A stretch of 64,000 nt of DNA from IMG/VR virus record IMGVR_UViG_3300038443_001768. The stretch is one strand, 5' to 3'. The stretch is from a virus. Under the pieces are notes generated by a model, which did no database searches, was not told the DNA's origin, and was given only the letters and a program-made list of their open reading frames with translations. Positions 20,529 to 46,583 of the stretch are shown piece by piece. How positions within the stretch are numbered: the stretch's first letter is position 1; each line of letters starts with the position of its first letter. Position numbers and translations under genes: made by a program.

Positions 20529-20552
20529 TCCTACAGCCCTGAGGAGCTATCC

Positions 20553-20747
20553 ATGTACTACAAGATCACCGAGGAGTTGCCCGACGGACGCGTCCGCGGA
20601 CTAGGCCGCACCGGCGACCGCGAAGAGGCGCTGCGCATCTATCACGCCGATCCGCGATGGGCGCGCACCCTTCATCAGTCGAGCACCCCGTTCCCGCCCG
20701 CTAAGGCGCAGCGAGGGGAGCTATCCAAGGCCTACAAGAAAGGCTAG
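20553..20747 (+). CDS. Hypothetical early protein
   Basis: GAGGAG-CTATCC-ATG. Confidence 0.75.
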   Translation: MYYKITEELPDGRVRGLGRTGDREEALRIYHADPRWARTLHQSSTPFPPAKAQRGELSKAYKKG

Positions 20748-20906
20748 TCCTGTATGTCTCAGTCTCACGGCGGTTCACGTTCGCGCGGCGATGACTTCGC
20801 TGAGATGGTCTCAGTGATTCTCATGATTGCCGGGATCGCGCTGTGCGTGATCGCGCCACTCGTCGAAGTCATCAAGTCCATCATCTAGCTCAGGGAGCTA
20901 TCCAAG

Positions 20907-21143
20907 ATGTACAACAACCTCTTCAACCCCAACGTCCCCTACCGCGCGGACGGCCATTGGTCGCTCCCGCTCAACCGGCGAGTCGCCTACGCCGACGAGC
21001 GCGCCGGTAGGATCGCCGAGAATGTGGCCAACCGGGAGCGGCTCGGACCCGTCGTCGCCGTCGATGGCGAGACCTATCAGTTCGACGCCTATGCGGAGCT
21101 ACTGTCGGCCGCGTACCCCGGCCGGAACACCATCAACAACTGA
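20907..21143 (+). CDS. Hypothetical early protein
   Basis: GGGAG-CTATCC RBS. Confidence 0.75.
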   Translation: MYNNLFNPNVPYRADGHWSLPLNRRVAYADERAGRIAENVANRERLGPVVAVDGETYQFDAYAELLSAAYPGRNTINN

Positions 21144-21153
21144 GAGGATCGAC

Positions 21154-21384
21154 ATGTCCATCAACTACGCTCGCATGCAGCGTTCGCTGCCTCGCCTGAA
21201 GGCGGCGCTCACTCGCGCCGTCAAGAGCGGCGATCCTGCCCGCGTCGAGGCCGCGTGTCGCGCCGCTGTCGCCGAATGGGACGCCTGCGGGGCATGGCCG
21301 GACGATTGGTCGCGCTGGCAGCGCGCTCTCGACGATTCGCGTCCGCCGTGGGAGTGGATTCGTCTCGAAGACCTCAGCGCGTAG
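21154..21384 (+). CDS. Conserved early phage protein
   Basis: KAALTRA...AWPDDWSRWQRALDD. Confidence 0.8.
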   Translation: MSINYARMQRSLPRLKAALTRAVKSGDPARVEAACRAAVAEWDACGAWPDDWSRWQRALDDSRPPWEWIRLEDLSA

Positions 21385-21434
21385 CCGCGCGGGGCATCGG
21401 ACCTCTCGGTGCCCCCTGCGAGTGCGAGCTATCC
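21376..21434 (+). repeat. 59-bp hairpin-GAGCTATCC element
   Basis: AGCGCGTAGCC[hairpin]AGTGCGAGCTATCC. Confidence 0.85.
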
Positions 21435-21487
21435 AGGCCGCGCAATCCAGGCCGCGCATCAACTAGTCCTACAAGAAAGGCAACATC

Positions 21488-21886
21488 ATGGCCAAGCGTT
21501 CCCCTGACCGCGAGCGGTTCCTCGCCGACGTCATCGTGACGGCCGTCGAGGGCGGCATCGGCTACTGGTCGCAGGTCTCGGATTACCGTTGGTGGTCCGA
21601 TCTGATCGGCGGGCACAACGCTACGGCGGTGTTTGAGACATCGGTGATCGTCTACCCGCTGCTGGACGATGAGTCCGGCTACAGCGTCAACGGCGTCCCC
21701 GTCGGCATCGACTCGATCGCGCGCGCCATCGAGCGGATCAAGTCCGACCGATCCATTCGGCTCAGCGATGCCTACTTGGCGCGCATCCTGATCGCCGACC
21801 GTGACAACGACGCCGGGAACCTCGATTCCGACGACGCCGACGTGATCGTTCAGGTAGCGGTGCTCGGTGACGTCATCTACGGGTGA
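21488..21886 (+). CDS. Conserved phage protein
   Basis: VTAVEGGIGYW...DADVIVQVAVLGDVIYG. Confidence 0.85.
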   Translation: MAKRSPDRERFLADVIVTAVEGGIGYWSQVSDYRWWSDLIGGHNATAVFETSVIVYPLLDDESGYSVNGVPVGIDSIARAIERIKSDRSIRLSDAYLARILIADRDNDAGNLDSDDADVIVQVAVLGDVIYG

Positions 21887-21902
21887 GGCGGGGGAGCTAT
21901 CC

Positions 21903-22112
21903 ATGTCTTACGACGCAATCCTGATCGAGTTCCGCGACCGCCGCACCGATCGCACCGTGTGGGCGGTCGTCGCTGATCGGATCGTTTGGTGCACCCCTAC
22001 CGAGGTCACCTACATCAAGTGCGACAGTGGCGTGCGTCACGGGTCGCGCATCCTGCCGTCCGAGTACGTGGCGCTGCGCCCCTGCGTGGCCGATCGGCCG
22101 ATCGGGCGGTAA
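21903..22112 (+). CDS. Hypothetical early protein
   Basis: GGAG-CTATCC-ATG. Confidence 0.7.
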   Translation: MSYDAILIEFRDRRTDRTVWAVVADRIVWCTPTEVTYIKCDSGVRHGSRILPSEYVALRPCVADRPIGR

Positions 22113-22134
22113 ACGACAACTAAGGGAGCTATCC

Positions 22135-22248
22135 ATGTCTGTCGTGTTCTTCATCATCAAGTGCCCGCGCTGTTCGTCTGAGGCGTGCGTCCGCGTTGGA
22201 CGCACCGGTGTCTGCGGGCGCGGCCATCACGTCCGAGTCAACCGCTAG
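22135..22248 (+). CDS. 37-aa Zn-ribbon peptide
   Basis: GGAG-CTATCC-ATG; CPRC...CGRGH. Confidence 0.65.
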   Translation: MSVVFFIIKCPRCSSEACVRVGRTGVCGRGHHVRVNR

Positions 22249-22305
22249 CGCGTAGCCATCAGGGGCCAAGTCATAGGATTTGGCCTCGATGAGTGCGAGC
22301 TATCC
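22247..22305 (+). repeat. 59-bp hairpin-GAGCTATCC element
   Basis: 58/59 identical to 26920-26978. Confidence 0.92.
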
Positions 22306-22342
22306 CACGCACTGCATGTCCATCAACAACTGGAGGTACTTG

Positions 22343-22519
22343 ATGTCCAAGTCGCAGTCGTTCACGTCCCTGTCGGCGGCGATGGGGTACCTGAAGGCCC
22401 AGGCTCGCGCGGAGGCGAACGCCGCCCACGCGGAGGACCTGAAGCGCGCCGCCAACCTCCGCCGGTCCGCGTCGATTGCCCGCAAGGCGCCCGGCACGGG
22501 ACCGCGCATCGCCGCCTGA
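22343..22519 (+). CDS. Small Ala/Arg-rich protein
   Basis: GGAGG RBS. Confidence 0.7.
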   Translation: MSKSQSFTSLSAAMGYLKAQARAEANAAHAEDLKRAANLRRSASIARKAPGTGPRIAA

Positions 22520-22566
22520 GCCGTCGCTCCAGCCAGTAGTCGGTTCGACACAGGTACCCCGGCGAC

Positions 22567-22630
22567 TAGCCGTCGCGGGCATCGGGTGAGACAATTCCGG
22601 TGCCCTCGATGGGTAGCCACGGAGCTATCC
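22567..22630 (+). repeat. Hairpin-GAGCTATCC element (variant)
   Basis: TAGCC-GTCG-C-GGGCATCGG...CCGGTGCCC-T-CGAT...GAGCTATCC. Confidence 0.75.
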
Positions 22631-22669
22631 CAGCGACGCAGATTGTTCTACAACAACAGGAGCAACGCC

Positions 22670-23071
22670 ATGACCACCAAGATGACGCCCGACGAGGCGC
22701 GCAAGGTCACCCGTCCGCAGCCCCGGGCCGGTGATCGCTGTGTCTTCTACTCCGAGATGTTGCACGAGACCGTCGACTCCCATGGGCGGTGGTTTCTGGT
22801 GCGTGACTACACGGGCCAGGAAGTCACCGTCGTCCGTCACCTGCGAGGGGTCAACGACCCCGCCCCTGAGTACGACGGGCCGGGCGAGGACGACGTCGAA
22901 GACCACGACGCCGATGAGGGCGGCAAGGGGTGGTTCGAGTGCTCGCGCGGCTACATCGTCCGCGCTCTCGACGGACGCGAGTTCATGGTTCACGTCGAGG
23001 AAATCGACGGCTGGGACCGCGACCTTGGACAGTTCTACGGACCCTCCGGTGTTTGGGGCAGCGTTGAGTAA
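22670..23071 (+). CDS. Hypothetical protein (SH3-like beta fold possible)
   Basis: AGGAG RBS. Confidence 0.75.
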   Translation: MTTKMTPDEARKVTRPQPRAGDRCVFYSEMLHETVDSHGRWFLVRDYTGQEVTVVRHLRGVNDPAPEYDGPGEDDVEDHDADEGGKGWFECSRGYIVRALDGREFMVHVEEIDGWDRDLGQFYGPSGVWGSVE

Positions 23072-23119
23072 CGAGCTATCCCAGCGCAGCACAGATTGTT
23101 CTACAACAACAGGAGCAAC

Positions 23120-23479
23120 ATGAAGACCTACGGTGAACCTGGCGGCGTGTACCTGACGTATGCGCTGAACCTCGATCGCGGCGCCTACGTGGTCGAGAAC
23201 GAGGCCGGAGACGAGCTTTACGCGTCTGGCTCTGAGGCCGACGCGCAGCGCTTCTGCGAAGACCTGATCCAGCGCGAGGCCGCCGCTCTCATGTACCAGT
23301 CGCAGGCGGCACGCGACGCTCAACGCGGCGGCTACGGAGGCCCTGCGTACTGGCAGTATCTGGACGACCATGCCTGCAAGATGCGCGACTACTGGCGCGC
23401 CCGTGGAGACGAGGAGCAGGCCGCCCTCATGTTGACCCGTTCGCTGGGTCAGGCGCTCGCTGGCAACGACGGCGAATAA
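23120..23479 (+). CDS. Hypothetical protein
   Basis: Leader duplicated from the 22670 gene. Confidence 0.75.
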   Translation: MKTYGEPGGVYLTYALNLDRGAYVVENEAGDELYASGSEADAQRFCEDLIQREAAALMYQSQAARDAQRGGYGGPAYWQYLDDHACKMRDYWRARGDEEQAALMLTRSLGQALAGNDGE

Positions 23480-23504
23480 CAACCTCATCAGTTAGGAGCT
23501 ATCC

Positions 23505-23798
23505 ATGTCCTACAACTCAGACGGCGAGCGCACCGTCCTCACTGACGACGCCTACAAAGAGGCGTTCGGTTGCGGGCGCGCCGCAGCCCGCGAGTACCTC
23601 AACAACCTCGAAGGCGCGACGCGCAGCGAGGCCCACTGCGACGACGTGCGCGAGTCGGTCCACCCGCGGGCGTTCTCGGAGGCGTTGGACGCCCTTGAGG
23701 ACTTCGCCGCCCTGCCCATCTCAGAGGCCGTCGATGACGGAATCAACGAGGCGTGGAACGAATTCATCCACGACGTCGCAGTCAACGACTACATCTAG
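23505..23798 (+). CDS. Acidic hypothetical protein
   Basis: AGGAG-CTATCC-ATG. Confidence 0.75.
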   Translation: MSYNSDGERTVLTDDAYKEAFGCGRAAAREYLNNLEGATRSEAHCDDVRESVHPRAFSEALDALEDFAALPISEAVDDGINEAWNEFIHDVAVNDYI

Positions 23799-23807
23799 AA
23801 CAACAAC

Positions 23808-24101
23808 ATGCCTAAGATCGCAGAGACCTACAACGGCTGGACCAACCGGCCGACCTGGAACGTCAACGTCTGGCTTTCCAACGATGAGAGCCTCTACTGG
23901 ACGGCCCTGGACGTGGTGCGTGGCTACAAGGAGCACACCACCAATTGGTCCGCGAAGGGTGCGGGCCAAGCGCTGCGCGAACTGGTCTTCGCGAACCGCG
24001 ACGACCGAGGCGGGTTCGGTGACCTGAGGCGCACCGAGCTATCCAAGGTCAACTGGACCGAGCTTGGCGCGGCCTGGCTCGAAGACATCATCCACGGCTA
24101 G
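23808..24101 (+). CDS. DUF7249-like phage protein
   Basis: YNGWTNRPTWNVNVWLSNDE...VNWTE. Confidence 0.8.
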   Translation: MPKIAETYNGWTNRPTWNVNVWLSNDESLYWTALDVVRGYKEHTTNWSAKGAGQALRELVFANRDDRGGFGDLRRTELSKVNWTELGAAWLEDIIHG

Positions 24102-24240
24102 GACCATGAGCATCATCGACCTCATCGCACTGACCCAGGCCTCTCTACTGGAGAGCGTCTTCGACTTCTACTACGACAACCCAGCGCGCCAGCCAGGAGG
24201 CTGGCACCGCGCTATCCGCGCTCACATCAAGGCGTAGCAC

Positions 24241-24492
24241 ATGAACATGGACCCCAACATCGTCCTGCTGACCTACCAGGGAGTCGTCCGCTATCACGGA
24301 CGGGTGGTTGTCACGGTCGGCGACGAGACGCTCTCGCAGGCCGTCGTACGCGCCCTGGACGCTGACCCCGACTTGCCGACGCCGCAACCGTGGGACCGCC
24401 TGCTCTTCCCGGACGCCGCGCCCGGCTCACAGTGGGCGACGCTGACGACGGAGCGGTTCCCGGCGCGCTCCATCAACCCCTTCAACGGCTAG
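24241..24492 (+). CDS. Hypothetical protein
   Basis: ORF in operon. Confidence 0.65.
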   Translation: MNMDPNIVLLTYQGVVRYHGRVVVTVGDETLSQAVVRALDADPDLPTPQPWDRLLFPDAAPGSQWATLTTERFPARSINPFNG

Positions 24493-24501
24493 GACGACAA
24501 C

Positions 24502-24708
24502 ATGACACGCAAGGACTACGAGTCGATCGCGCTGGTGCTGCTGTCGGAGCGTTCGCGCTCGATGGGCGACGAGTTCGACAACGACGTTGCAGCCAAGGTG
24601 CTCGACAACGTCGCGTACGCGCTGGCCGTCGAATTCAAGGCCGACAACCCCCGGTTCGATCGGGACCGGTTCCTCATCGCGAGCGGCGCAACCCGAACCA
24701 GCCGCTAA
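24502..24708 (+). CDS. Conserved small phage protein
   Basis: MTRKDY..IA...FKADNPRFDRDRF. Confidence 0.85.
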   Translation: MTRKDYESIALVLLSERSRSMGDEFDNDVAAKVLDNVAYALAVEFKADNPRFDRDRFLIASGATRTSR

Positions 24709-24741
24709 GCGAGCTATCCAAGTTCTACATCTAGGAGCAAC

Positions 24742-24984
24742 ATGAAGGCCTTTGTCGTCTACATCGACACCGACGAACTCTCCGCCGCCGATCTGCGGGT
24801 GGCGGTCATCCTGGGGGCTGATTGCGGCGCAGACACCGAGCCCGCCGTGACCGTCGAGAGGATCGTCTACGACGGTTACCGCCTCGATGTCCGCACCGGC
24901 GAGCGCTCCGGACCCAAAGCCCTCACCCTGCGCTACAAGGCGCAGCCGCTCAGCCATGGTTACGCCGACAGCGACCCCTTCTAG
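24742..24984 (+). CDS. Hypothetical protein
   Basis: AGGAG RBS. Confidence 0.7.
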   Translation: MKAFVVYIDTDELSAADLRVAVILGADCGADTEPAVTVERIVYDGYRLDVRTGERSGPKALTLRYKAQPLSHGYADSDPF

Positions 24985-24990
24985 GAGTAC

Positions 24991-25527
24991 ATGATGAACA
25001 ACGACATCCGCACCGCCAACGTCGAGGTCTCCGAGGCCCCTGGCGGTCGTGGCGGCTACCACATCGTCCGCTCGCACGGCATCGCCGGTACGTGGTGGGC
25101 GTGCTCGCGCAGTGGCGACGACGCCATCTCGATGGCTGTCTACGCGTCGCTGTTCGGTGAGTGCCCGCGCCGCCCGTGGGAGCCGCCGATGGCGCCCAAC
25201 GAGGTCGACGGCATGAGGTCGCCTCTGGCGGTGTCCTACGACAGCGAGGCCGATGCGCGAGAGGCCTTTGAGCGCATGGAGCGCGCGTGGTCGGCGGCCC
25301 TGCGGGGGACGCTGGTCGAGCTTCAGCCCTACGCGGAGGACGACGACTCAGTGACCCTCACCGACGAGGACTTCGAAGTCCTCAACCAAGGTGGCTATAT
25401 CAGCCTCCCCGACGGGCGCGTCGTCATCGACGGGCTCGACTGCTGCGCGCACGTCCTGACGCCGGGCACCTATTGGGGCGCGGACGGCAACTGCTACGAA
25501 GTACCAACCAAGATCACCAACAGCTAG
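24991..25527 (+). CDS. Hypothetical protein
   Basis: TAGGAG stop/RBS coupling. Confidence 0.75.
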   Translation: MMNNDIRTANVEVSEAPGGRGGYHIVRSHGIAGTWWACSRSGDDAISMAVYASLFGECPRRPWEPPMAPNEVDGMRSPLAVSYDSEADAREAFERMERAWSAALRGTLVELQPYAEDDDSVTLTDEDFEVLNQGGYISLPDGRVVIDGLDCCAHVLTPGTYWGADGNCYEVPTKITNS

Positions 25528-25538
25528 GAGCACACCCA

Positions 25539-26018
25539 ATGTCTGCGTTCGTCGTCAGCAAGGCCCATATCGATGCTATGATCACGGCCGCGATCGACCT
25601 GAACATCAACTACTGGAACGGCGAGAGGTGGTGCGTAGTCAGCGCCGCTACCGCCAACGAGGTCGGACAGGCGCTGGTCGACGAGTGCGTGCGTTCGGTC
25701 AGCTACCGCTACCCCAACGATGACGTCAAGGCCGGTGAATTGCCCGGTCCCGGCGACGCCTACTACGTCGAGCCGTACCAGTACATGCGCACGCGTAGGT
25801 TCTCCGACGCAGAGGTCCGGGACCTCGTTCGCTGCTACGAGTATCAGGCATGCGAACACCCTGGATGGCGGACCTCACCGGCCGAGTACTTCTGTCGCGC
25901 CGTCGAGGGCAAGCTGCTATCGCGCATCCCGGGCGAGGGCGCGCGTTGGGGCGTCGAAGCCGACGACGTCGGCTACGGCACACGCAACGACTTCAACATC
26001 ACCGATCTACTCAGCTAG
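25539..26018 (+). CDS. Conserved early phage protein
   Basis: MSAFVVSKAHID...SVSYRY...CYEYQACEHPGW..S.A. Confidence 0.85.
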   Translation: MSAFVVSKAHIDAMITAAIDLNINYWNGERWCVVSAATANEVGQALVDECVRSVSYRYPNDDVKAGELPGPGDAYYVEPYQYMRTRRFSDAEVRDLVRCYEYQACEHPGWRTSPAEYFCRAVEGKLLSRIPGEGARWGVEADDVGYGTRNDFNITDLLS

Positions 26019-26028
26019 GGGCAACGCC

Positions 26029-26310
26029 ATGAACTCGATCAAGTTCCAGGCCATCTCTGAGGCGGCGGCGCGCGACCTCGACGGCAACGTTGTCGCGGCC
26101 TTCGACCTCGCCGACGAGGACGGCTGCTATCCCGCGGCGCTCATCGCGTGGCAGGGACGAGCCCATCCGACTCGTCACGGCACCCACATGGCGGTCGTGC
26201 CGCCTGATCGCGCAGTCTATTTCGTCGATGGCGCGTACGACTTCGCCGAATCCCTCGACGCTGTCAGTGACGCCTTCCATCGCTGGCTGCGCAAGAACCC
26301 CATCAACTAG
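26029..26310 (+). CDS. Hypothetical protein
   Basis: Coupled ORF. Confidence 0.7.
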   Translation: MNSIKFQAISEAAARDLDGNVVAAFDLADEDGCYPAALIAWQGRAHPTRHGTHMAVVPPDRAVYFVDGAYDFAESLDAVSDAFHRWLRKNPIN

Positions 26311-26324
26311 GAGCTATCCACGTC

Positions 26325-26531
26325 GTGAAGAGCATTATCTTCTTCCGGGTCGATGTGCCCGGCATCGGTGACAGCGTTCGCGTCCAGGACGACGTCGCCG
26401 GCATTGACAGCAAGCTGCGGGCCGCACACCTGAACCACGACCTGACCATCGAGGTCACGACGTCGTCGGGGCGTGCGCTCGTTATCCCGATCGATCTGAT
26501 CGGGCCGTTCCGCGACTACCAGGACCGATGA
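26325..26531 (+). CDS. Hypothetical protein
   Basis: AGGAG-CTATCC RBS, GTG start. Confidence 0.7.
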   Translation: MKSIIFFRVDVPGIGDSVRVQDDVAGIDSKLRAAHLNHDLTIEVTTSSGRALVIPIDLIGPFRDYQDR

Positions 26532-26965
26532 TGGAGTCCGCGATCACGCAGGACACGATCATGGCGGTAGCGCTGCGACATGATCCTTACGCCGAGTGGG
26601 CGTCCGACGAGCCGGACGAGAACTGCCTTCTCATCGCGCATCATGCGGTCGTGTTCCTGCTCGACCGTTACCCCGACGCCTACGAGGACCCCAACGTCCT
26701 CGCTATCGGCGATCACACACGCGTCGTCTTTCCGACCCTCAACAACTGGACCCTGTGGCGAACATCAACGAGCAGCGCGAGGTCGCGCAGCACATCATGT
26801 CGCTCATCGTCAAGGGCACGCCGCATGCCGACGCGCAGATCGCGGAGGCCGGTATGTGTCTCGCCGAACTGGTCATCGCGCTCGATCATTGGCGGCGTAC
26901 CGGCGGATTCGACCCCTACAGCGCGTAGCCATCAGAGGCCAAGTCATAGGATTTGGCCTCGATGA
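26528..26965 (+). CDS. Hypothetical protein (C-terminus overlaps next gene)
   Basis: ATGA overlap; only the first ~75 aa look coding. Confidence 0.5.
   Translation: MMESAITQDTIMAVALRHDPYAEWASDEPDENCLLIAHHAVVFLLDRYPDAYEDPNVLAIGDHTRVVFPTLNNWTLWRTSTSSARSRSTSCRSSSRARRMPTRRSRRPVCVSPNWSSRSIIGGVPADSTPTARSHQRPSHRIWPR
26746..26928 (+). CDS. Small phage protein of (M)DP..N..EQR...ALD.W...GGF type
   Basis: Recognisable family pattern; start is CTG 26746 or GTG 26755. Confidence 0.65.
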   Translation: MDPVANINEQREVAQHIMSLIVKGTPHADAQIAEAGMCLAELVIALDHWRRTGGFDPYSA

Positions 26966-26978
26966 GTGCGAGCTATCC
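26920..26978 (+). repeat. 59-bp hairpin-GAGCTATCC element
   Basis: 58/59 identical to 22247-22305. Confidence 0.92.
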
Positions 26979-27003
26979 AAGCCCTACAACTAAAGGAACA
27001 CCT

Positions 27004-27216
27004 ATGCCTGTCGTTCACTTCACATCCTCAGACTCCTTCATGGAGTTAGACAATCGCGCCGCGCTGACCGCTGACGTCGAGGTCGTCGACTACGTCGAGG
27101 CCACCTACTGCGCCCTCCGCACGGGTCCCGACGGCGTCACCATCGCCGTCTACGAGGGCGGCGCATGGGAACTGCCGGACGGCCGCCGGTTCTCCGATTG
27201 GGCCGTCCGGGTCTAG
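27004..27216 (+). CDS. Hypothetical protein
   Basis: AAAGGA RBS. Confidence 0.75.
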   Translation: MPVVHFTSSDSFMELDNRAALTADVEVVDYVEATYCALRTGPDGVTIAVYEGGAWELPDGRRFSDWAVRV

Positions 27217-27225
27217 GACATCAAC

Positions 27226-27618
27226 ATGATCGTCAACGGCACCACCTACCACGACCGCACCGACGAACGTGTCATCGCGGCCCTTGAGTGGGCGCGCGCG
27301 CGCCGCGTCCGTATCCGGGTCCACTACGGAACCACCGTGACCTCGATGCCCGCCTCGCTGGGCTCGCCTGTCGGGTCTGATTGGGGCGACACGTATCACG
27401 TCGAGGGCTACGTCGGGCGCTCCACCGGCAACGAGAAGATTCCATTGTTGGTCAACAACGCTCGATCCACAGGCGGCCCCGCGATCCTCGACGACTGCAT
27501 CGTCAGGGTCCGTATGGCGAACCGCTCCGAGGGTGGCGATATCTACCGCCACCCCTCATACTGTCCCCCGCCGCGTGGCGACTTCGACGAGAAGACCTAC
27601 AACCGACATTTCGCCTAA
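27226..27618 (+). CDS. Conserved early phage protein
   Basis: GTTYH...RIRVHYG...GYVGRSTG..KIPLL..NARSTGGPAILDDCIV. Confidence 0.85.
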   Translation: MIVNGTTYHDRTDERVIAALEWARARRVRIRVHYGTTVTSMPASLGSPVGSDWGDTYHVEGYVGRSTGNEKIPLLVNNARSTGGPAILDDCIVRVRMANRSEGGDIYRHPSYCPPPRGDFDEKTYNRHFA

Positions 27619-27620
27619 GC

Positions 27621-27881
27621 ATGCCTACTACTCAGGAAATTCAAGCTGCTCGCGACGGCCTGCGGCGGCTCGCGCGGGTCATCAACCACGCGGCCGACGA
27701 ACTGCACCTTGCGTCGCTGTGCTCGTTGACCATCGACCGAAACCCCAACGACGACAACCTGCGAGATGATCAGCGCCGCTCAATCGACCATCACGTCGCG
27801 GCGGCGCGCGGCGTCATCGAGACCCAGCCGCCCCTGTACGCGTACGCGCTGTTCACGCTTCTATCCAAGCACGGACTCTAA
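27621..27881 (+). CDS. Hypothetical protein
   Basis: ORF in operon. Confidence 0.65.
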   Translation: MPTTQEIQAARDGLRRLARVINHAADELHLASLCSLTIDRNPNDDNLRDDQRRSIDHHVAAARGVIETQPPLYAYALFTLLSKHGL

Positions 27882-27890
27882 GGACCCTAC

Positions 27891-28550
27891 ATGACCAAGA
27901 TCATCAACAAGCTCTTCGGCCGCTTCAAGGAGCAGCCGCTTTGGAGCGACGAGTCCTCGAACCAGCGCTGGTCAATTGGGCCGATCAAGTTGGAGTACAA
28001 GCCGAGCGTTGGTCTGACGTGGTGGCTCGGCAAGGGGTCGTCGCTAACCCTGGGCCGACGCCCTGGGTTCAAAGCTCTGGTCCCGGTGTGGGTGCCGGTC
28101 TTGCTCCCGGTGCGGCTGCGCATCTTCCACCGCGACGGCGTCACAGTGACGCTGCGCTTGCGTCGCCCGTACCTGACGCGCTGGGTGCTCTGCGTCGGCA
28201 CCTGGGCCTACGACGGCGGCGGGCGGCTCGCCAGGGGGCCTGAGTTCTACCGGCGCGTGGTGCTGACGTGGTGGCGGGTCACTCACCGCCCGCAGAGCGA
28301 CTACTACATCAAGCCCTGGTACGGCTACGGTGCGGACGGGCTGGAGTTGTTGTTCAGAGACCGCGAGGCACGCAAGGCCTCCAACGCTCCATTCAAGACC
28401 GACCCAGGTGTCGACTATCCCCGCGTAGAGCGCATCTGCCAGTTCCCGTGGGGATCGACGCCGCCGCGCGGATTCCCGCTCCGCATGGGTGTCCTGGACG
28501 GGTTCCGAGACTGGCGTCAGACCAAGTACTACAAGAAGGTGGCGGCATGA
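27891..28550 (+). CDS. Basic Trp-rich hypothetical protein
   Basis: AAGGA RBS. Confidence 0.7.
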   Translation: MTKIINKLFGRFKEQPLWSDESSNQRWSIGPIKLEYKPSVGLTWWLGKGSSLTLGRRPGFKALVPVWVPVLLPVRLRIFHRDGVTVTLRLRRPYLTRWVLCVGTWAYDGGGRLARGPEFYRRVVLTWWRVTHRPQSDYYIKPWYGYGADGLELLFRDREARKASNAPFKTDPGVDYPRVERICQFPWGSTPPRGFPLRMGVLDGFRDWRQTKYYKKVAA

Positions 28551-28804
28551 CCATCAACCCCATCATCTACGACGCCGACGACTGGCGAGTCATCCGAATC
28601 AATCCGATCGACTTCCGGGTCGAGCGGCACTACAAGGGAACCGACCACGTGGACTCAGCGCTGGTGTCGCTGCGCGAGACCGTGCATCCTGGCCTGCGCG
28701 AGTTCATCGTCGTGCGCGGTCCGTTCTACAGCTATCAACTGCCCGCCGAGCTTGCGCGAGCCATGTGGCATGCAGTCACGCACGGCCTCGGCATCAGACT
28801 CTAA
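28547..28804 (+). CDS. Hypothetical protein
   Basis: ATGA overlap. Confidence 0.7.
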   Translation: MTINPIIYDADDWRVIRINPIDFRVERHYKGTDHVDSALVSLRETVHPGLREFIVVRGPFYSYQLPAELARAMWHAVTHGLGIRL

Positions 28805-28815
28805 GGAGAAACAAC

Positions 28816-29349
28816 ATGTACCGCATGCAGCGCCGCTACGTCAGCAACCCCAACTACGAGCACGCGCTGGCCGTCTTCGCGGACGGTCTGCTCCGCAACA
28901 ACGACTACGACCGTCAGCTATGCGGGGCGGTCCTCCACGGCGGCTCCGATCGGTTCGGCTCGGACGTCTTCGACATCGTCGACCCCAACGTGGTACCGGA
29001 CCATTTCGTGCTCGGTCCGATCTTCGTCGGGCTGGGCTCCGACACGGACTGCGACGGCACCACCTACCACGCCGTCAAGATCGACGCCGACAACCTGCGC
29101 GACGCGCTGATCCAGGCGGACGAGTACCCGCACGTCTACAAGGTCATCACGCTTCGCGAGGCCGACGATGACGACATCTGGGAGGACGGCCGGAAGCCGG
29201 GCTGGGACGAGCGCGCCTACTTCCTCCAGGAGGGCTACGCCTCGTTGGGCGCGGATTGGAACCCGTGGGTCTACGACGACTCGCTCGGCACGGTGCTCGA
29301 TCACACCAACGACGTTCCGGTCATCAACGATGACGACCTCTACTACTGA
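28816..29349 (+). CDS. Acidic hypothetical protein
   Basis: AAGGAG RBS. Confidence 0.75.
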   Translation: MYRMQRRYVSNPNYEHALAVFADGLLRNNDYDRQLCGAVLHGGSDRFGSDVFDIVDPNVVPDHFVLGPIFVGLGSDTDCDGTTYHAVKIDADNLRDALIQADEYPHVYKVITLREADDDDIWEDGRKPGWDERAYFLQEGYASLGADWNPWVYDDSLGTVLDHTNDVPVINDDDLYY

Positions 29350-29362
29350 GAGGAGCTATCCG

Positions 29363-29572
29363 ATGTTGAACAACGAGTACATCATGTTCTTGGTCAAAAC
29401 TCGCCTGACCCAGGACTGCGACGACGTCGTGCTCGTCAAGGCGCGCGACCGTGAGGACGCCAAGCGGCAGGCGTTGCCGTTTCTCGGCCACTACGCCAAC
29501 GAATACGTGGTCGAGCCGTTGACGCGAAGGACGGACAACGTCATCGTCAGTCTCAGCTTCGCCCTCTCCTAG
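29363..29572 (+). CDS. Hypothetical protein
   Basis: GAGGAG-CTATCC RBS. Confidence 0.7.
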   Translation: MLNNEYIMFLVKTRLTQDCDDVVLVKARDREDAKRQALPFLGHYANEYVVEPLTRRTDNVIVSLSFALS

Positions 29573-29634
29573 AAAGGACATCATGTACAACGCATTCGTC
29601 ATCTATCGAGACCGCATGGAAAGAGAGGCTCAGC

Positions 29635-29895
29635 ATGGCCGATGAGTACGAAGACGATAAGAGAATCCTCCTCGTCGAGGACACCAAGACACAACTCATC
29701 GATGCGCTGGCCGACCTGATGCTGATCCATGGCGGCGACGGCTCGAAGGTCCAAGACGAGATTGAGCGCGCCTGGTCGTCAGCGCACCGCCACTACGAGG
29801 CCGAGAAGGACGGCGACTCCGAGGGCTTCACGCTCATGGTGTGCGCGCAGGACGGCAGCCGCTCGGTTCCGCTGCGCGAGTGGGTGACGCGATGA
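29635..29895 (+). CDS. Hypothetical protein
   Basis: LIDALADLM...AHRHYEAE. Confidence 0.7.
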   Translation: MADEYEDDKRILLVEDTKTQLIDALADLMLIHGGDGSKVQDEIERAWSSAHRHYEAEKDGDSEGFTLMVCAQDGSRSVPLREWVTR

Positions 29896-30263
29896 CCGGC
29901 CGACAGATCGGCACCGTCGAAATCCTGCGTCTCAGGATCTACAACATCGACCCCGACGACGAGTACTCGGACGAGGTCGCGGTCGAGCCGGGCGAGTGCC
30001 CCGTCCTCGTCGAGGACGGCGTCTACTTCTGGCGCATGAGGGGCCGCCTCAGTCGCCGCGTCGGTGCTGACGTCGCGGCGCTCGGCGATGGAATGTTCAT
30101 GGTCTCGCCAGGCGTTGACGTTCAGGTCGGCGACGAGATTGAGTTCTCGTCGCGTCGGTTCTCCGCCGATGAGTTCCAGGCGCTGCTCAGCGACGACGTT
30201 TGTCGCGAGGGTGACACCTCTCAGCGCCTGCGTTTCAACATCAAGGAGGGGTATCTGCGATGA
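29892..30263 (+). CDS. Hypothetical protein
   Basis: ATGA overlap. Confidence 0.7.
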   Translation: MTGRQIGTVEILRLRIYNIDPDDEYSDEVAVEPGECPVLVEDGVYFWRMRGRLSRRVGADVAALGDGMFMVSPGVDVQVGDEIEFSSRRFSADEFQALLSDDVCREGDTSQRLRFNIKEGYLR

Positions 30264-30454
30264 GACGCGTCAGGATCGAAGTCACCGAGTACTACATCAT
30301 CGATATCGGCGAGGAAAACGACGGCACGGACGCCGTCCTGGAACTCGACGAGATGGACTCAGACGATCGTGCCGCCGCCTACCAAGAGCGGTACGTCAGG
30401 GTCTTCGATGACAACACTGGCGGCGAGTTGCCGGTCGATCGGACGGTCGTGTGA
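30260..30454 (+). CDS. Acidic hypothetical protein
   Basis: ATGA overlap. Confidence 0.7.
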   Translation: MRRVRIEVTEYYIIDIGEENDGTDAVLELDEMDSDDRAAAYQERYVRVFDDNTGGELPVDRTVV

Positions 30455-30723
30455 TGCTGCTGACGTTCTCCGTGTACTCCGCGGAGCCCTACCCAATCAA
30501 CGAGTCGTGGTATACGCTCGAAGAGGCTATCGAGGCCGAGTCCCACACCGTCGCCGCTGAGGCAAACGCGGATCACATCCCGGACCCGTCCGAGGACACG
30601 CGCGAGGCTTTCCGGCTGGAGGTCGTGCATGCCGCTACGGCGGCGTTGCAGCGGCCGGGCGACACCTACCGTGACCCGCTCGGGGTCGTGTGGTCGCTGG
30701 TCGAAGACCGCTCCCGAACCTAA
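30451..30723 (+). CDS. Hypothetical protein
   Basis: Coupled ORF. Confidence 0.7.
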   Translation: MMLLTFSVYSAEPYPINESWYTLEEAIEAESHTVAAEANADHIPDPSEDTREAFRLEVVHAATAALQRPGDTYRDPLGVVWSLVEDRSRT

Positions 30724-30738
30724 CGAAAGGACACCAAG

Positions 30739-30933
30739 ATGAGCACCAAGTACGACGCCTACGTGGAGGCCATCAATCGCGCCGACGAGGCGATGCAGGA
30801 GGCGTTGCGCGTCTTGCCTCAAGACGCCAGCGAGCTATCCGTGCTGGTCACGAACGGAACGTTCCGTGACGTCCGTGCGACGCTCACGATGGCCTACGGG
30901 CTCCAGAGGGAGGCCCAGGATGGGACTCGCTGA
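30739..30933 (+). CDS. Hypothetical protein
   Basis: AAAGGA RBS. Confidence 0.7.
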   Translation: MSTKYDAYVEAINRADEAMQEALRVLPQDASELSVLVTNGTFRDVRATLTMAYGLQREAQDGTR

Positions 30934-31108
30934 CATCGCCGCCCGCCTGGCGGCGTACGAGAACGAGGAACTCTCCTACGACGAGGAGGTCGAGTTGTTC
31001 CAGGAGTTGCTGGACACCGACGTGATCTACCATCTCCAGGGCTCGTACGGGCGCCGGATGCAGGAACTGATCGAGGAAGGGAAAGTGCGTGTCGCAGGAG
31101 GTAGCTGA
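30920..31108 (+). CDS. DUF7417-like small phage protein
   Basis: AYENEEL...ELFQELLDT...LQGSYGR...LIEEG. Confidence 0.8.
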   Translation: MGLADIAARLAAYENEELSYDEEVELFQELLDTDVIYHLQGSYGRRMQELIEEGKVRVAGGS

Positions 31109-31418
31109 GGTCGTCGTGTGGATCGAGACGCCGATCGACACCATCAAGTACACCATCAGAGGGATCGCCCGGAATGATGGAGCGCCCCTGGGTGGCGTCT
31201 ATGTCGAGCGCGAGACCGACGGCGGCGTCGATCAGGCGCAGGCCGAGGTCGTCCAGCACGGGCCTAGGCTTCTCCTGGACTTCATCCAAGGCTGGCTCAG
31301 CGAGAGCATCATCGATGATGACGACGAGCACGACCGGCGGTGGAATCAGCGCCCGGTGGGCCTATGGTCGCTGATCTGGCGGGCCTGGATGGACGCTGCG
31401 GGGGCGCCCACGGCGTGA
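31089..31418 (+). CDS. Hypothetical protein
   Basis: ORF in operon. Confidence 0.65.
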   Translation: MSQEVAEVVVWIETPIDTIKYTIRGIARNDGAPLGGVYVERETDGGVDQAQAEVVQHGPRLLLDFIQGWLSESIIDDDDEHDRRWNQRPVGLWSLIWRAWMDAAGAPTA

Positions 31419-32590: not shown

Positions 32591-32601
32591 GAGCTATCCA
32601 T

Positions 32602-35609: not shown

Positions 35610-35983
35610 GCTATCCCAGAATCATCATTCTCAGCCTCGTCGGCCTCTTGCTGCTGCCTTCGTCGACGCTGGCGCAGCGGCACACACTGGGTCAGGGCGC
35701 GGCCGTATCCAACTACGGCGTCACAGTCGCTGGGCAGCAGACGTCACCTACAATGACGGTGATCTTCACGGGCCAGCAGCGGTATCCGCACGGACGATGG
35801 GTGCTGCGCTTCGCGCAGGTAGCGGCCGACGACACCAACATCGTATATGTGCCCGTGGCGGCACATCCATGTCCTGGGCCGTATTACGTTGTACACCTCA
35901 TAGGTGAACAGGCTGAGTGTTTCGCAGCCTTCACCGATACGATTCCAAAGGAGGTCATCGCATCGCTAAGACAGAACACGTGA
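35606..35983 (+). CDS. Secreted hypothetical protein
   Basis: Signal peptide ending TLA. Confidence 0.7.
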   Translation: MSYPRIIILSLVGLLLLPSSTLAQRHTLGQGAAVSNYGVTVAGQQTSPTMTVIFTGQQRYPHGRWVLRFAQVAADDTNIVYVPVAAHPCPGPYYVVHLIGEQAECFAAFTDTIPKEVIASLRQNT

Positions 35984-36546: not shown

Positions 36547-36873
36547 GTGATCTCTCGTAGCGAGCTATCCGCCGCCGCACGTCGCAACGACGCGCTCGTC
36601 GCGGCCGGCGTCCCCATTGATCGCCTGTTAGCGGACCTGAACATGGAACCGCGCTCCTTGATCAGCGTTGCTGAGCAAAGAGCCCTGCGGATCGCACTCC
36701 TTCACGACGGCTGGACAGAGACCGAGTTGGACGTCATGGGAAGCATGCTGCGTCCGCAGCGCGTCCGCCTCGAAGAGGCCACGAGGTTCTGGATGCCTAC
36801 CTTCTGCGCACTCGTCATCGACGGCGCTGCGCTTGTCCGTCGGGCTGAGCAGACTTACTCATCCCGCGCCTGA
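36547..36873 (+). CDS. Hypothetical protein
   Basis: SVAEQRALR motif; 3' part of track ORF. Confidence 0.65.
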   Translation: MISRSELSAAARRNDALVAAGVPIDRLLADLNMEPRSLISVAEQRALRIALLHDGWTETELDVMGSMLRPQRVRLEEATRFWMPTFCALVIDGAALVRRAEQTYSSRA

Positions 36874-42741: not shown

Positions 42742-42980
42742 CCGACATGATCCATGCCGACGTGGTCGCCCAGCGCGAGCTATCCCTGCGGCGGCATCTC
42801 AAGACCATCAACCCGACCTGGCCGACCTACTATGTCGGCGTCGCCGAAGAGGCTATCGCGGCCGTCGAGGCTGGCGAGGACGACTTCAAGATCACCATGC
42901 CGGGCGGACGAACCGTGACGGCCGAGAACGTGATCTCTGCGTTTTCGCTGAGTGGGTTCATCGAGGTCGCCAATGACTGA
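42738..42980 (+). CDS. Hypothetical protein
   Basis: ATGA overlap. Confidence 0.7.
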   Translation: MTDMIHADVVAQRELSLRRHLKTINPTWPTYYVGVAEEAIAAVEAGEDDFKITMPGGRTVTAENVISAFSLSGFIEVAND

Positions 42981-44208: not shown

Positions 44209-44411
44209 AGGTCTACGTGGCCTTTCATAGAGGCGAATTCTTCGGCCACGACGTGCCGCCCGGACCGAGTTCGTTCGTCGGCGTCTACGCAACGCGCGAG
44301 GAGGCGCTACGTCACTGCTGGCCTGAAGGCGACTCGCAATTTGTCGAAGAGCGCGAACTTGAGGCTGCTCGCGAGGAAGAGCCGTCGTTCCCGCAATGGA
44401 ACTTCCCTTGA
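44205..44411 (+). CDS. Hypothetical protein (paralogous N-terminus to 43684)
   Basis: MKVY...FVGVYATREEA. Confidence 0.7.
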   Translation: MKVYVAFHRGEFFGHDVPPGPSSFVGVYATREEALRHCWPEGDSQFVEERELEAAREEEPSFPQWNFP

Positions 44412-44436
44412 CATCAGCCCGCAACTAGGCTAGGGT
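44408..44436 (+). promoter_or_regulatory. Sigma70-type promoter (leaderless)
   Basis: TTGACA-N17-TAGGGT-N7-ATG. Confidence 0.8.
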
Positions 44437-44443
44437 CATCGCC

Positions 44444-44656
44444 ATGACGCCGGAGCGCGCCTTCCATCTGTTCGGAGACGTGCTCTCGAATCGTGACATC
44501 AGGATCTTCTCGCGCAGCGATCTCGCCCACGGGCGCGTGTGGTTCGTCCACGCCACCGTCGGCGATGAGACGCGCGAGGTGTTCCAGACCAACGATCCCA
44601 GCTTGGCGGCGCGTTGGCGCGAAACCTACACCCGACTGGAAAGGAACGCTCAGTGA
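44444..44656 (+). CDS. Hypothetical protein
   Basis: Leaderless start. Confidence 0.7.
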   Translation: MTPERAFHLFGDVLSNRDIRIFSRSDLAHGRVWFVHATVGDETREVFQTNDPSLAARWRETYTRLERNAQ

Positions 44657-44997
44657 AGAAGAGAATCTTCAAATACTCTCTTGAGGTCGAGCCGCGCCAG
44701 ATGCTTCATCTTCCGGCAGGGGCAGAGCTTCTCTCGGTGATCGCCGACGCCCTCGGGCCGAAGCTGTACGCGCTCGTAGACCCAGAGGCGCCGGCCGAGC
44801 CGCGCATCCTACGCACCGTCGTTGCCGGCGAGGTCGTCGAAGGGGACGCGCTCGACGCCTACATCGGGACCTACGTGGTCGGTGAGGGGCGCTTTGTCGG
44901 CCATCTGTTCGAGCAGGCGACTGGCGTCGGCGACGAACGCGATCGACGTTGGGACGCCGACATGGCCGACCTGCGACGCGAGTTGGTGGCCTCGTGA
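44653..44997 (+). CDS. DUF7352-like phage protein
   Basis: KRIFKYSL...LPAGAELLSV...LYALVDP...YIGT...FVGHLFE. Confidence 0.8.
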   Translation: MKKRIFKYSLEVEPRQMLHLPAGAELLSVIADALGPKLYALVDPEAPAEPRILRTVVAGEVVEGDALDAYIGTYVVGEGRFVGHLFEQATGVGDERDRRWDADMADLRRELVAS

Positions 44998-45377
44998 GCG
45001 GGCTCCCGCTCCGGCAACAAACTGTCCGCGACGATGACAGCGCCTATCCCGGCGGCGTGACGTTCCGGCCGTTCACGGCCGTCGCCGCTGAGGGTGCCCG
45101 GATCGCGCTGTTCACCTGTGATGCGTGCGGCGCGACCGTCATGCTCGACCCGCGCGAGGAAGACGGCAATCCGCTCGAAACGCATGCCGAGTGGCATGCC
45201 GCTTTCACGACACAGCGCCTGTTCAAGCGGTGCGCGTACTGCGGGCTCACGCGGCTCTGCGAGTGGCGCGGTCGCGGCCGATGGATCTGCGACGGCTGCT
45301 GGGACGAGACAACCGACGGCTGCTGGGACGAGACAACCGGCGGCGGCGATGCGACAGACGCTCCGGCCGAGAAGTGA
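44994..45377 (+). CDS. Zn-finger hypothetical protein
   Basis: CDACG...HAEWH...CAYC...CDGC. Confidence 0.7.
   Translation: MSGLPLRQQTVRDDDSAYPGGVTFRPFTAVAAEGARIALFTCDACGATVMLDPREEDGNPLETHAEWHAAFTTQRLFKRCAYCGLTRLCEWRGRGRWICDGCWDETTDGCWDETTGGGDATDAPAEK
45291..45338 (+). repeat. 24-bp tandem duplication (DGCWDETT x2)
   Basis: GACGGCTGCTGGGACGAGACAACC twice. Confidence 0.95.
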
Positions 45378-45550
45378 ACGCCTGATGATCTGGGTCGCCG
45401 TAACGGCGCTGGCGTGCCACAACGCCTATCTACTTAGGAAGATTCACCAATCAAATCTACGGATCGACACAGCCTGGGACGCATGGCGATCCGACATCCC
45501 GTTGATCAGGCAGCGTGTCGCACGCCTGATCGGTAAGGAGATCTAAGTCT

Positions 45551-45817
45551 ATGCAGGACAGTCGTTGGTACCCAACAGTGGTGACTGTGACACTTTACTG
45601 GGACGGCTTCACCGACCGTGATATCGAGATCCTCGAAGAGAGCGACTTCGAGGTCGTTCGCGAAAGCAACTACCTCGTCCTGGAGCGCACCGTGAGTGGA
45701 AACTGTGACGCCGTCGCTAACGCAGGCATGATACTGCGCGACGTCGAAGACGCCCTCGTAGTCCTCGATATCAGCGTCTTTGAGGTGTCGATCGTGGCGA
45801 GAAAGGCGGCCGTGTAA
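45551..45817 (+). CDS. Hypothetical protein
   Basis: AAGGAG RBS. Confidence 0.7.
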   Translation: MQDSRWYPTVVTVTLYWDGFTDRDIEILEESDFEVVRESNYLVLERTVSGNCDAVANAGMILRDVEDALVVLDISVFEVSIVARKAAV

Positions 45818-45899
45818 TGGTCTTCGTTGCGTTGGCGCTGGTAGTGCTCTTTATCGCGCTCTTCTGCGGGTTGCTTATCGCGATGATCGATCGGATGTC

Positions 45900-46583
45900 G
45901 TGATGCTCCCCGACGACCTCATCGAGCGGCTTCGAGACGGCGATGATCCGCTCCACATGGCGAAGAAGCTGCTCCGATCGGGACATGATCTCGGACGCCA
46001 CGATAAGAGCGCCGCCAACTGTCACGTCATCGGTCTCGACTCGATCGTGCTCTTCGACTTCGGCGGGCGCGGCATGATTCGCTACTACGACTACTCGATG
46101 CTCGACGGGTCACTGAGCAGCCTCTACAACGAGGACGGCGGCTTCACGATCGGTGTGCACAATCACCGCTACGAAATCGCCAAGATCCCACTCCTGGGCT
46201 GCTACGCCAACGTCACCACCGCGGTCGACGAGACCGACGGGCGCGGCCGAATGCTGCTGCATGAGCACGAATTCTCATCCGGGATCGACGGCGAGCTTGG
46301 AGTCACGTATCGCGACGCACGCCTGATGCGGCCCTTCGATGTCGAGGTCATGATGCCCGGCTCGTCGGTAATCATGCAGCCTGAGGATCTCCACACCGTT
46401 GTCGTGCCGCGCCGTCAGCGGGCCGCTTGGATGGTGATCGAGGGCTCGCGACGCGATGACATCACACCGCTCTTGTATTCGCCGACCAGAGACCTTGTAC
46501 TCAACTCCGATCACCTCTACCAGCCCATCCATGGTCGCGCTAAGTCGGCGATCGGCAAGCTCATTGAGGAGCTATCCGAGTGA
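45900..46583 (+). CDS. Cupin-like hypothetical protein
   Basis: NCHVIGLDSIV...GVHNHRYE...LHTVVV...AAWMVIEG. Confidence 0.65.
   Translation: MMLPDDLIERLRDGDDPLHMAKKLLRSGHDLGRHDKSAANCHVIGLDSIVLFDFGGRGMIRYYDYSMLDGSLSSLYNEDGGFTIGVHNHRYEIAKIPLLGCYANVTTAVDETDGRGRMLLHEHEFSSGIDGELGVTYRDARLMRPFDVEVMMPGSSVIMQPEDLHTVVVPRRQRAAWMVIEGSRRDDITPLLYSPTRDLVLNSDHLYQPIHGRAKSAIGKLIEELSE

Follow-up and report, generated by a model that had tools for sequence, protein, structure and literature searches.

Start-associated sequences (SAS) of the cluster K mycobacteriophages are short asymmetric words that are found in 11–19 copies per genome, in one orientation and in the non-structural half; they contain a GGAG ribosome-site core, are located 3–7 bp before the start codon of unrelated genes, and occur across sub-lineages, and about half of them are preceded by a pair of imperfect inverted repeats of 17 bp (ESAS) (Pope et al., 2011, PMC3203893; 188-genome survey, PMC12699233). 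SAS have been known in actinobacteriophages since 2011 (PMC3203893), and as of 2025 their function was still untested (PMC12699233). Here we analyze GAGCTATCC, a nine-letter word in a 64,000-nucleotide stretch (the window) of the IMG/VR virus record IMGVR_UViG_3300038443_001768, the source of which is an uncultured phage, ~140 kb long and rich in GC, from metagenomes of soil and rhizosphere. The word resembles the cluster K SAS but is not a member of that family; our tentative reading, to which we give somewhat less than even weight, is that it is a strand-specific cis-regulatory word of an early, promoter-poor polycistronic block, that is, a tag read on the transcript by a conserved factor.

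The likeness to SAS lies in copy number, single orientation, restriction to the non-structural region, and conservation before unrelated genes: the window contains 21 forward copies and none of the reverse complement, and a relative, G001 (an IMG/VR contig of 139.5 kb, 99% complete, anchor protein 83% identical), contains 20 and none, all within 33.6–60 kb and with no copy elsewhere on either strand. The differences are several. The SAS consensus GGGATAGGAGCCC (13 bp, up to two mismatches) has two matches in the 64 kb, both at two mismatches (1.3 expected) and neither at a start; SAS have 13 letters and are scored with up to two mismatches, whereas GAGCTATCC has nine and tolerates essentially no mismatches. 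SAS are start-adjacent, whereas this is true of 25 of 47 copies of GAGCTATCC, the others being 22–53 nt upstream of a start or within genes. A hairpin precedes 5 of the 21 window copies, and these hairpins covary as RNA-like stems, which the ESAS arms do not. Finally, SAS are hosted by a 59-kb temperate siphovirus, in contrast to the apparently lytic, tRNA-rich phage of ~140 kb considered here.

The stoperators found in L5 and in further phages of cluster A (sites for the repressor gp71) are also numerous, asymmetric, oriented with transcription, and located in intergenic gaps and over starts and stops. However, their consensus GGTGGMTGTCAAG has seven matches at two mismatches in the window (2.5 expected), which are spread over the two strands and located away from the copies; no integrase passed the threshold in G001, and no helix-turn-helix repressor family is present among the 86 early proteins encoded at 17.3–49.2 kb. 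Stoperators are found in both arms, whereas GAGCTATCC is limited to one gene block and doubles as a ribosome site. The view taken in the original prediction, which a model had made from the letters alone, that the word matches none of the analogous elements named there holds for both the L5 stoperator and the cluster K SAS consensus.

Two systems of T4-type phages also bear comparison. In T4, the RegB endoribonuclease cuts GGAG in early ribosome sites, and RegA is the translational repressor of a regulon; the likeness is a sequence at early-gene ribosome sites through which one factor could act on a temporal class of mRNA. However, RegB reads four letters (GGAG) and the word has nine, and no RegB-like or other ribonuclease family was recognized among the 86 early proteins (Pfam, PHROG). 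The PeSL cassettes of T4-type phages consist of a strong sigma-70-type promoter and a stem-loop terminator (Arbiol et al., 2010, PMC2839356). They share with GAGCTATCC a repeated module associated with stem-loops, a hyperplastic setting of small early ORFan genes, and a position at swap junctions; however, no TTGAC-N16-18-TAnnnT site is present at any copy of the word, the hairpins are without T-runs, and the shared sequence is only 9–12 letters long.

An exact word under purifying selection

In the window, genes run leftward from position 1 to ~15 kb; from 17.3 kb onward the direction is rightward up to the end, with more than 100 genes, most of them small. Genes were called with our own crude codon-usage caller, and the frame assignments are rough. 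Our recount reproduces the 21 plus-strand copies of GAGCTATCC and the absence of reverse copies, as well as the 14 copies counted between 20.5 and 27 kb; 17 of the 21 are within 17.3–32.6 kb. The word is the top-count 9-mer of the window, though it is AT-rich for a genome with 63% GC. The expectation of less than one chance copy per strand is also supported: dinucleotide shuffles give 0.34 copies (largest, 2), and a codon-preserving shuffle, in which all proteins and the codon usage of each gene are kept and the intergenic letters are scrambled, gives 0.60 on the plus strand (largest, 3; 300 trials), so that the enrichment persists under this stricter null (21 vs 0.60).

The word is all-or-none, that is, near-matches are at background level. 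Sites with zero, one, and two mismatches number 21, 3, and 73 on the plus strand of the whole window and 0, 4, and 69 on the minus strand; among 114 plus-strand gene starts, the exact word is found within 20 nt of nine, a one-mismatch version of none, and a two-mismatch version of two, the last being equal to background. In G001, GAGCTATCC is again the top-count 9-mer and, together with tRNA T-loop words, is among the most over-represented, and one-mismatch sites are fewer than for a reversed control word; the strand bias extends to a whole genome (20 forward, 0 reverse).

For fifteen window copies an orthologue is found in G001, and none of the 135 positions compared is substituted; the flanks, compared without gaps and anchored on the word, match at 40–90%. 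Private copies exist in both phages; the six of G001 precede genes for which the window has no homologue. One and the same gene may have the word at spacing 0 in one of the two phages and at 2 or 3 in its counterpart. Cassette swaps between the window and G001 often end exactly at the word (word-free junctions are used as well), and three swapped cassettes have a copy on each side. The word is under strong purifying selection at every letter, co-oriented with transcription, and portable between unrelated cassettes.

More distant contigs also contain the exact word. G003 (DNA polymerase 75% identical) has six forward copies and one reverse copy; three of these are GGAGCTATCC followed by 1–2 nt and ATG, in a region syntenic to 49–60 kb of the window, where the window has none. 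L161/L162 and L163 (DGQHR protein 63–67% identical) have five and four forward copies, respectively, and no reverse copies. None of the nine copies in L161/L163 has a start 0–8 nt downstream: two are located 1–2 nt after good −10 boxes, two overlap ATG, two are in genes, and one precedes a terminator-like hairpin. Because these distant contigs keep the word without fusion to a ribosome site, the exact word is older than its use there and is conserved across a clade. No copy is present in the G004, L167, and L168 contigs. An 18-mer scan of viral contigs returned chance singletons only, a protein scan of metagenome contigs returned nothing, and an extended-motif scan of metagenome contigs returned 13 singletons with one copy each. 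In four soil and rhizosphere DNA runs, this phage and a G001-like strain co-occur; in rhizosphere soils this phage attains 20–90x depth.

Placement at starts, in leaders, and in genes

The 47 copies from three phages were classified by program (Table 1 for the window); copies with an ATG or GTG 0–8 nt downstream that opens an open reading frame (ORF) are designated Shine-Dalgarno (SD)-fused. Ten window copies have such a start opening an ORF of at least 30 amino acids (aa), and in nine of the ten the preceding base is G (GGAG); the other, at 30832, has C at −1 and a 30-aa in-frame ORF and was counted as hairpin-associated, leaving nine SD-fused copies. In the three phages, 25 of the 47 copies have a start 0–8 nt downstream, and 21 of these 25 are preceded by G (GGAG-CTATCC-start); among the remaining 22, the base at −1 is G in 5 and C in 15 (Fisher 3e-5, with orthologues that are not independent). 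The earlier estimate that about half of the copies are fused to a Shine-Dalgarno is thus confirmed (9 of 21 in the window, 25 of 47 in the three phages). In the 21 copies with GGAG the word supplies the Shine-Dalgarno with a 6–9-nt spacing. SD-fused copies occupy tight 11–25-nt gaps within operons, and the RNA upstream of them is less structured than average.

Leader-type copies are located 22–53 nt upstream of a start with a Shine-Dalgarno of its own. Among the 12 non-SD-fused window copies, five (5 of 21 overall) are preceded by hairpins whose folding energy reaches or passes the local 5th percentile; these hairpins are 10–11 bp long and GC-rich and have no T-run. In G001, a different hairpin precedes the same word; stem sequences are swapped between relatives. 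The word is followed by A-(A/T)-G in two thirds of the copies, and its first 3′ neighbor is a purine in 33 of 41; by eye, ~10 copies in the window and G001, both coding and non-coding, continue NNC-TACAAC. One 34-nt sequence, consisting of the 3′ half of a hairpin, GATGAGTGC, and the word, is exactly duplicated 4.7 kb apart (22272–22305 and 26945–26978); the contigs of public assemblies break at this duplicate, as the four runs mentioned above also showed.

Within genes, the original prediction had noted five copies read in frame as Glu-Leu-Ser; by our rough gene calls there are six (20718, 24036, 30832, 36562, 42777, and 46569, the last being the addition). Called genes encode 15 Glu-Leu-Ser tripeptides, 6 of them exactly by GAG-CTA-TCC, vs ~0.16 expected from codon usage; this codon choice is nucleotide-level selection, as had been proposed. 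The frame is not a general rule: the copy at 35608, which covers a start (ATGAGCTATCC), is in another frame, as are two copies inside genes of L161. The in-frame copies at 20718 and 46569 are, in addition, no more than 30 nt upstream of the next start.

Table 1. Copies of GAGCTATCC in the window and the stretch without canonical promoters
Feature	Position	Strand	Placement	Context and comparison with relative
Copy 1	20544..20552	+	SD-fused, GGAGCTATCC then ATG at +0	64-aa ORF; cassette up to copy 2 without homologue in G001
Copy 2	20718..20726	+	In frame, Glu-Leu-Ser	3′ end of 64-aa ORF, 27 nt before start 20754
Copy 3	20895..20903	+	SD-fused, AAG then ATG (+3)	Exact orthologous copy in relative
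Copy 4	21426..21434	+	Leader type	Hairpin ~21391–21415 before; SD-led ATG 53 nt on; orthologous
Copy 5	21894..21902	+	SD-fused (+0)	Gene downstream unlike relative's
Copy 6	22126..22134	+	SD-fused (+0)	37-aa ORF; homology with relative starts exactly here
Copy 7	22297..22305	+	Leader type	Hairpin ~22257–22291; SD-led ATG 37 nt on; closes 34-nt duplicate 22272–22305; other hairpin in relative
Copy 8	22622..22630	+	Leader type	Hairpin ~22567–22615 (minimum free energy −30.7); SD-led ATG 39 nt on
Copy 9	23073..23081	+	Leader type	1 nt past upstream stop; SD-led ATG 38 nt on
Copy 10	23496..23504	+	SD-fused, TAG-GAGCTATCC-ATG	Relative: same gene, AAG inserted before ATG
Copy 11	24036..24044	+	In frame, Glu-Leu-Ser-Lys	Within DUF7249 gene; kept in relative
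Copy 12	24711..24719	+	Leader type	SD-led ATG 22 nt on; relative's leader identical
Copy 13	26311..26319	+	SD-fused, TAG-GAGCTATCC	GTG at +5
Copy 14	26970..26978	+	Leader type	Hairpin ~26930–26964; SD-led ATG 25 nt on; closes duplicate 26945–26978
Copy 15	29353..29361	+	SD-fused (+1)	
Copy 16	30832..30840	+	In frame in called ORF	Directly after hairpin ~30804–30831, then GTG; kept in relative
Copy 17	32591..32599	+	SD-fused (+2)	Relative +0
Copy 18	35608..35616	+	Overlaps start codon (ATGAGCTATCC)	Met-Ser-Tyr-Pro of signal-peptide protein; private; same ATG overlap in relatives
Copy 19	36562..36570	+	In frame in weakly scoring ORF	~700 nt upstream of DGQHR gene; kept in relative
Copy 20	42777..42785	+	In frame	13 codons into 80-aa gene; kept in relative
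Copy 21	46569..46577	+	SD-fused (GTG +2, overlaps upstream stop); in frame in upstream gene	Last copy
Canonical-promoter-free stretch	17300..32045	+		~14.7 kb of SD-led small genes; with copy 17 (32591), 17 of 21 copies

These placements bear on two alternatives. In the first, the word has no dedicated reader and is a stereotyped, efficient ribosome-binding cassette (GGAG + CTATCC) that is spread by recombination during the shuffling of gene cassettes and serves as a short shared linker, like the PeSLs of T4-type phages. Half of the copies are indeed a Shine-Dalgarno with its spacer, the homology often breaks exactly at the word, with three swapped cassettes flanked by copies, and the missing intermediate variants fit copying over convergence; other stereotyped start regions exist (RGGAACCCCAACATG in G003 and GGAGCAAC in the window), as do shared first codons in early genes (ATG-TCC-TAC-AAC). 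However, leader and in-gene copies are letter-perfect between diverged phages, the word persists in L161 and L163 without a start 0–8 nt downstream, and the in-gene codon choice is far from chance; in addition, swaps are also found at word-free junctions, and nine bases are short for homologous exchange. We consider this explanation unlikely.

In the second, GAGCTATCC is the DNA operator of a phage-encoded monomer-binding protein that blocks or tunes elongating RNA polymerase according to orientation, a roadblock that is stoperator-like but for timed early shut-off rather than lysogeny. An asymmetric, co-oriented, many-copy site located mostly between genes or at starts and stops has the anatomy of the L5 stoperator (PMC3203893). 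In two distant relatives, a good −10 box (TAGAAT, TACGAT) is followed 1–2 nt later by a copy, a position in which an operator would extend over the start of transcription, and the reverse word in G003 is located inside the spacer of a TTGACG-N16-TAGACT promoter; however, this promoter copy is not kept in the orthologous promoter of the window. The L5 consensus is absent, and the 99%-complete relative yielded neither an integrase over threshold nor a recognized repressor. Single mismatches are usually tolerated by protein operators, whereas near-matches to GAGCTATCC are at background; also, the G at −1 near starts indicates that in half of the copies the word is transcribed and is a ribosome site. 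Overall, a roadblock is a doubtful explanation.

Promoters, candidate readers, and surrounding sequence

Sites of the form TTGAC-N16-18-TAnnnT on the plus strand number nine in the early-gene region, the first at 32046, and a tenth is located at 10353 in the leftward block. Six of them (32046, 36252, 44408, 53061, 54546, and 55777, all +) have an ATG or GTG 6–9 nt past the −10 box, which implies leaderless mRNAs, a type common in Actinobacteria; the promoters at 37018 (before the DGQHR gene), 39091, and 58017 (+) are leadered. No such site is present on the plus strand between 17.3 and 32 kb, where all of the genes are SD-led, and a promoter scan of 14.5–31 kb found no promoter-like site, fewer than in shuffles. 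G001 has the same complementary pattern of promoters and copies, and G003 and L168 have many canonical promoters and few or no copies. Because copies and canonical promoters occupy complementary regions, the word belongs to polycistronic, ribosome-site-dependent expression. L168, which lacks GAGCTATCC, has its own repeated element, extended −10 promoters of the form CTTGACA-N17-TTGCTAAACT located ~10 nt before ATG (14063, 16603, 17908, and 20380).

The same map could be read differently, with GAGCTATCC as the core of a non-canonical promoter used by the host polymerase with an unrecognized phage factor. The 17.3–32-kb stretch without a canonical promoter holds most of the copies, leader-type copies would give plausible 22–53-nt leaders, and a purine follows the word in 33 of 41 copies. 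In contrast, there is no conservation upstream of −3, SD-fused copies in 11–25-nt operon gaps leave no room for a transcription start before the ATG, the G-at-minus-1 rule places the word inside the mRNA, and the TATCCN hexamer never ends in T. Searches for the machinery also argue against a promoter: 99%-complete G001 has no Sigma70 r2 or r4_2 match (with the controls working), and no RNA polymerase is encoded by the large ORFs scanned; a PF00940 scan had no match, but its control was also silent. We regard a promoter as very unlikely. The TACAAC found six bases past the word was considered as a −10 box and rejected: the final T is missing, and in SD-fused copies it is inside the gene.

The original prediction had named as candidate readers the DGQHR protein and two proteins with putative winged helix-turn-helix domains. 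The 438-aa DGQHR protein matches TIGR03187; its gene (37263–38579, +) has its own TTGACA-N16-TATATT promoter and a third-position GC content of 0.95. The protein is 52–69% identical to the products of stand-alone genes of diverse bacterial phyla, which are located in defense islands next to ThsB-TIR, CBASS, and restriction genes and have no word nearby; the phage gene looks like a captured defense-island gene. No TGT/DpdA partner for the DGQHR protein was found in the relative. Two related phage contigs have the DGQHR gene and lack the word, and the 56.7-kb contig of one relative carries the word and lacks a homologue of DGQHR. Since gene and word do not co-vary among relatives and the bacterial homologues are without the word, the DGQHR protein is disfavored as the reader. 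The winged helix-turn-helix label for the proteins at 34000 and 60736 found no confirmation in Pfam or NCBIfam matches.

The DGQHR gene also enters a further explanation, in which the word is a polar DNA signal unrelated to expression: Chi-like exonuclease protection, a T5-like nick site, or a ParB-like clamp half-site. Chi and nick sites are typically short words that are exact, polar, and over-represented, as GAGCTATCC is. A specific match comes from bisS, the loading site of BisD, a ParB-like CTP clamp of ICEclc that slides along the direction of transcription: the 9-mer is identical to the first nine letters of each of the two arms that make up bisS, GAGCTATCCCCnGGGGATAGCTC (bioRxiv 10.1101/2024.09.16.613209). 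bisS is widespread in proteobacterial elements, the BisD gene adjoins bisS in a Pseudomonas locus, and the DGQHR gene of the phage belongs to the ParB/Srx superfamily. However, bisS is an 11-bp inverted repeat found in two copies in Proteobacteria, whereas here ~20 single same-strand copies are found with no palindrome and, in the window and G001, no reverse copy. The word is confined to one temporal gene block rather than genome-wide, and its link to gene starts is tight; tblastn and a profile of 13 BisD proteins revealed no BisD homologue among the ORFs of four phages, and DGQHR presence and word do not track each other. We regard a DNA signal of any of these kinds as very unlikely, and the bisS match is a low-probability lead that may be a coincidence of the literature.

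Two of the L161/L163 copies (L161 13711 and L163 7037) are located directly after a −10 box and upstream of an 86–87-aa stand-alone WYL-domain gene. WYL domains of other proteins bind single-stranded nucleic acids; these small proteins were rejected as candidates, having no homologue in the window, G001, or G003.

Of the 86 early proteins, only eight match Pfam families (six DUFs, an RNA ligase, and a weak zinc-ribbon), and an Rfam scan of the window gave no family match. Megablast of 8 kb against 50,697 phage records identified no close isolated relative; the protein matches to isolated phages are all below 60% identity, and those listed are 26–40%. Many early genes open with Met-Ser-(Tyr/Ile)-(Asn/Lys/Asp) in near-identical codons, ATG TCC TAC AAC (e.g., 17941, 21154, 21903, and 23505), Ser is residue 2 in 32 of 114 called starts, and many upstream genes finish with ATC AAC (AAC) and the stop. 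G003 (L036–L038) has a second stereotyped start region, RGGAACCCCAACATG, in 8–10 copies, all on the sense strand (e.g., 5591, 10495, 15694, 32624, and 42809).

The divergent gene blocks of the window are separated by a 2.2-kb non-coding stretch (15200–17300) with direct repeats, GCGTCTCACG and GAGCGAAC, each in four copies on the plus strand; this stretch may be an origin or control region. At the head of the rightward block (17190–17320, +) is a tRNA-like element in which TTTT comes after a perfect T-arm-like hairpin (loop region GGTTCGATTCC); ARAGORN called the orthologous G001 stretch (30447–30525) as tRNA-Ala(tgc) and no tRNA in the window. At the other end, a 902-aa protein without a Pfam match is encoded at 1–2553 (−) in the window and at 12225–14933 (−) in G001; by eye, its C-terminal half contains a GDSH motif (SGNH-hydrolase-like), and it is probably a virion-associated enzyme, not a polymerase.

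Weighing a proposed transcript tag

The reading that we tentatively prefer is a tag in the transcript. As we envisage it, a single conserved trans-acting factor would read the word as an exact 9-mer within the ribosome-binding region or the 5′ leader, and ~20 unrelated small genes would thereby be handled as one set, via translation start or via mRNA cutting and stability. Such a tag would fit all of the positions of the word, its restriction to the polycistronic block, and its single-letter stringency; that the action is in RNA rather than DNA, that the factor is dedicated, and what the outcome is are points that we infer. Because more distant relatives keep the word without it, the Shine-Dalgarno fusion is probably an economical fit into short intergenic gaps and not the core function.

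Several observations weigh against this reading. No nuclease or regulator family was recognized among the 86 early proteins with Pfam and PHROG, the matches being DUFs, the RNA ligase, and two weak HNH endonuclease PHROG matches. No phage RNA complementary to the word was found, either exact (in the whole of G001) or G-U tolerant, and pairing with an assumed 16S rRNA tail sequence is ordinary, ranking 1384 of 4096 GGAG+6-mers. Copies deep in genes (24036 and 42777) have no obvious role in translation start, the copies at L161 14505 and G003 10287 oppose the local gene direction, and the roadblock operator discussed above fits the same polarity and positions. The original prediction of a coordinated shut-off or processing code for early genes is retained in part: the word is a strand-specific, selected cis element of the early small-gene block, but the shut-off or processing half of the claim finds no nuclease or regulator among the early proteins.

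A more elaborate version of the transcript tag, which we think decidedly unlikely, would make the word an address label that is recognized to the single letter, either through base pairing or by a protein specific for single strands, clade-conserved or host-supplied; ~20 fast-evolving ORFan cassettes would be placed under one post-transcriptional switch, and the label would also be the joint at which cassettes are exchanged, in an integrase-free, integron-like array. Integron cassettes depend on an IntI tyrosine recombinase and carry an imperfect inverted-repeat attC at each cassette end; the array differs from them in that no integrase passed the threshold and a hairpin is present at only 5 of 21 copies; no resolvase was found in 99%-complete G001 either. 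A search for a mirror small RNA gave no exact complement in the whole relative, no conserved 7–8-mer, and no conserved G-U-tolerant complement. The reverse complement GGATAGCTC resembles positions 5–13 of tRNA, and a tRNA was considered as the partner and rejected: all 26 tRNAs of G001 are at least two mismatches away.

The case is unusually clean: nine exact letters, with near-matches at background, are unchanged in phages whose DNA polymerases are only 75% identical and whose DGQHR proteins are ~63–67% identical, and they occupy three positions (ribosome site, leader, and coding sequence). Taken together, these features separate a 'good ribosome site' from a 'dedicated signal'. One genome has a division of labor, with a canonical-promoter-free, SD-led, tag-dense block beside canonical leaderless promoters. 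If the reader of the word is found, it would represent a new mode of early-gene control in large lytic phages.

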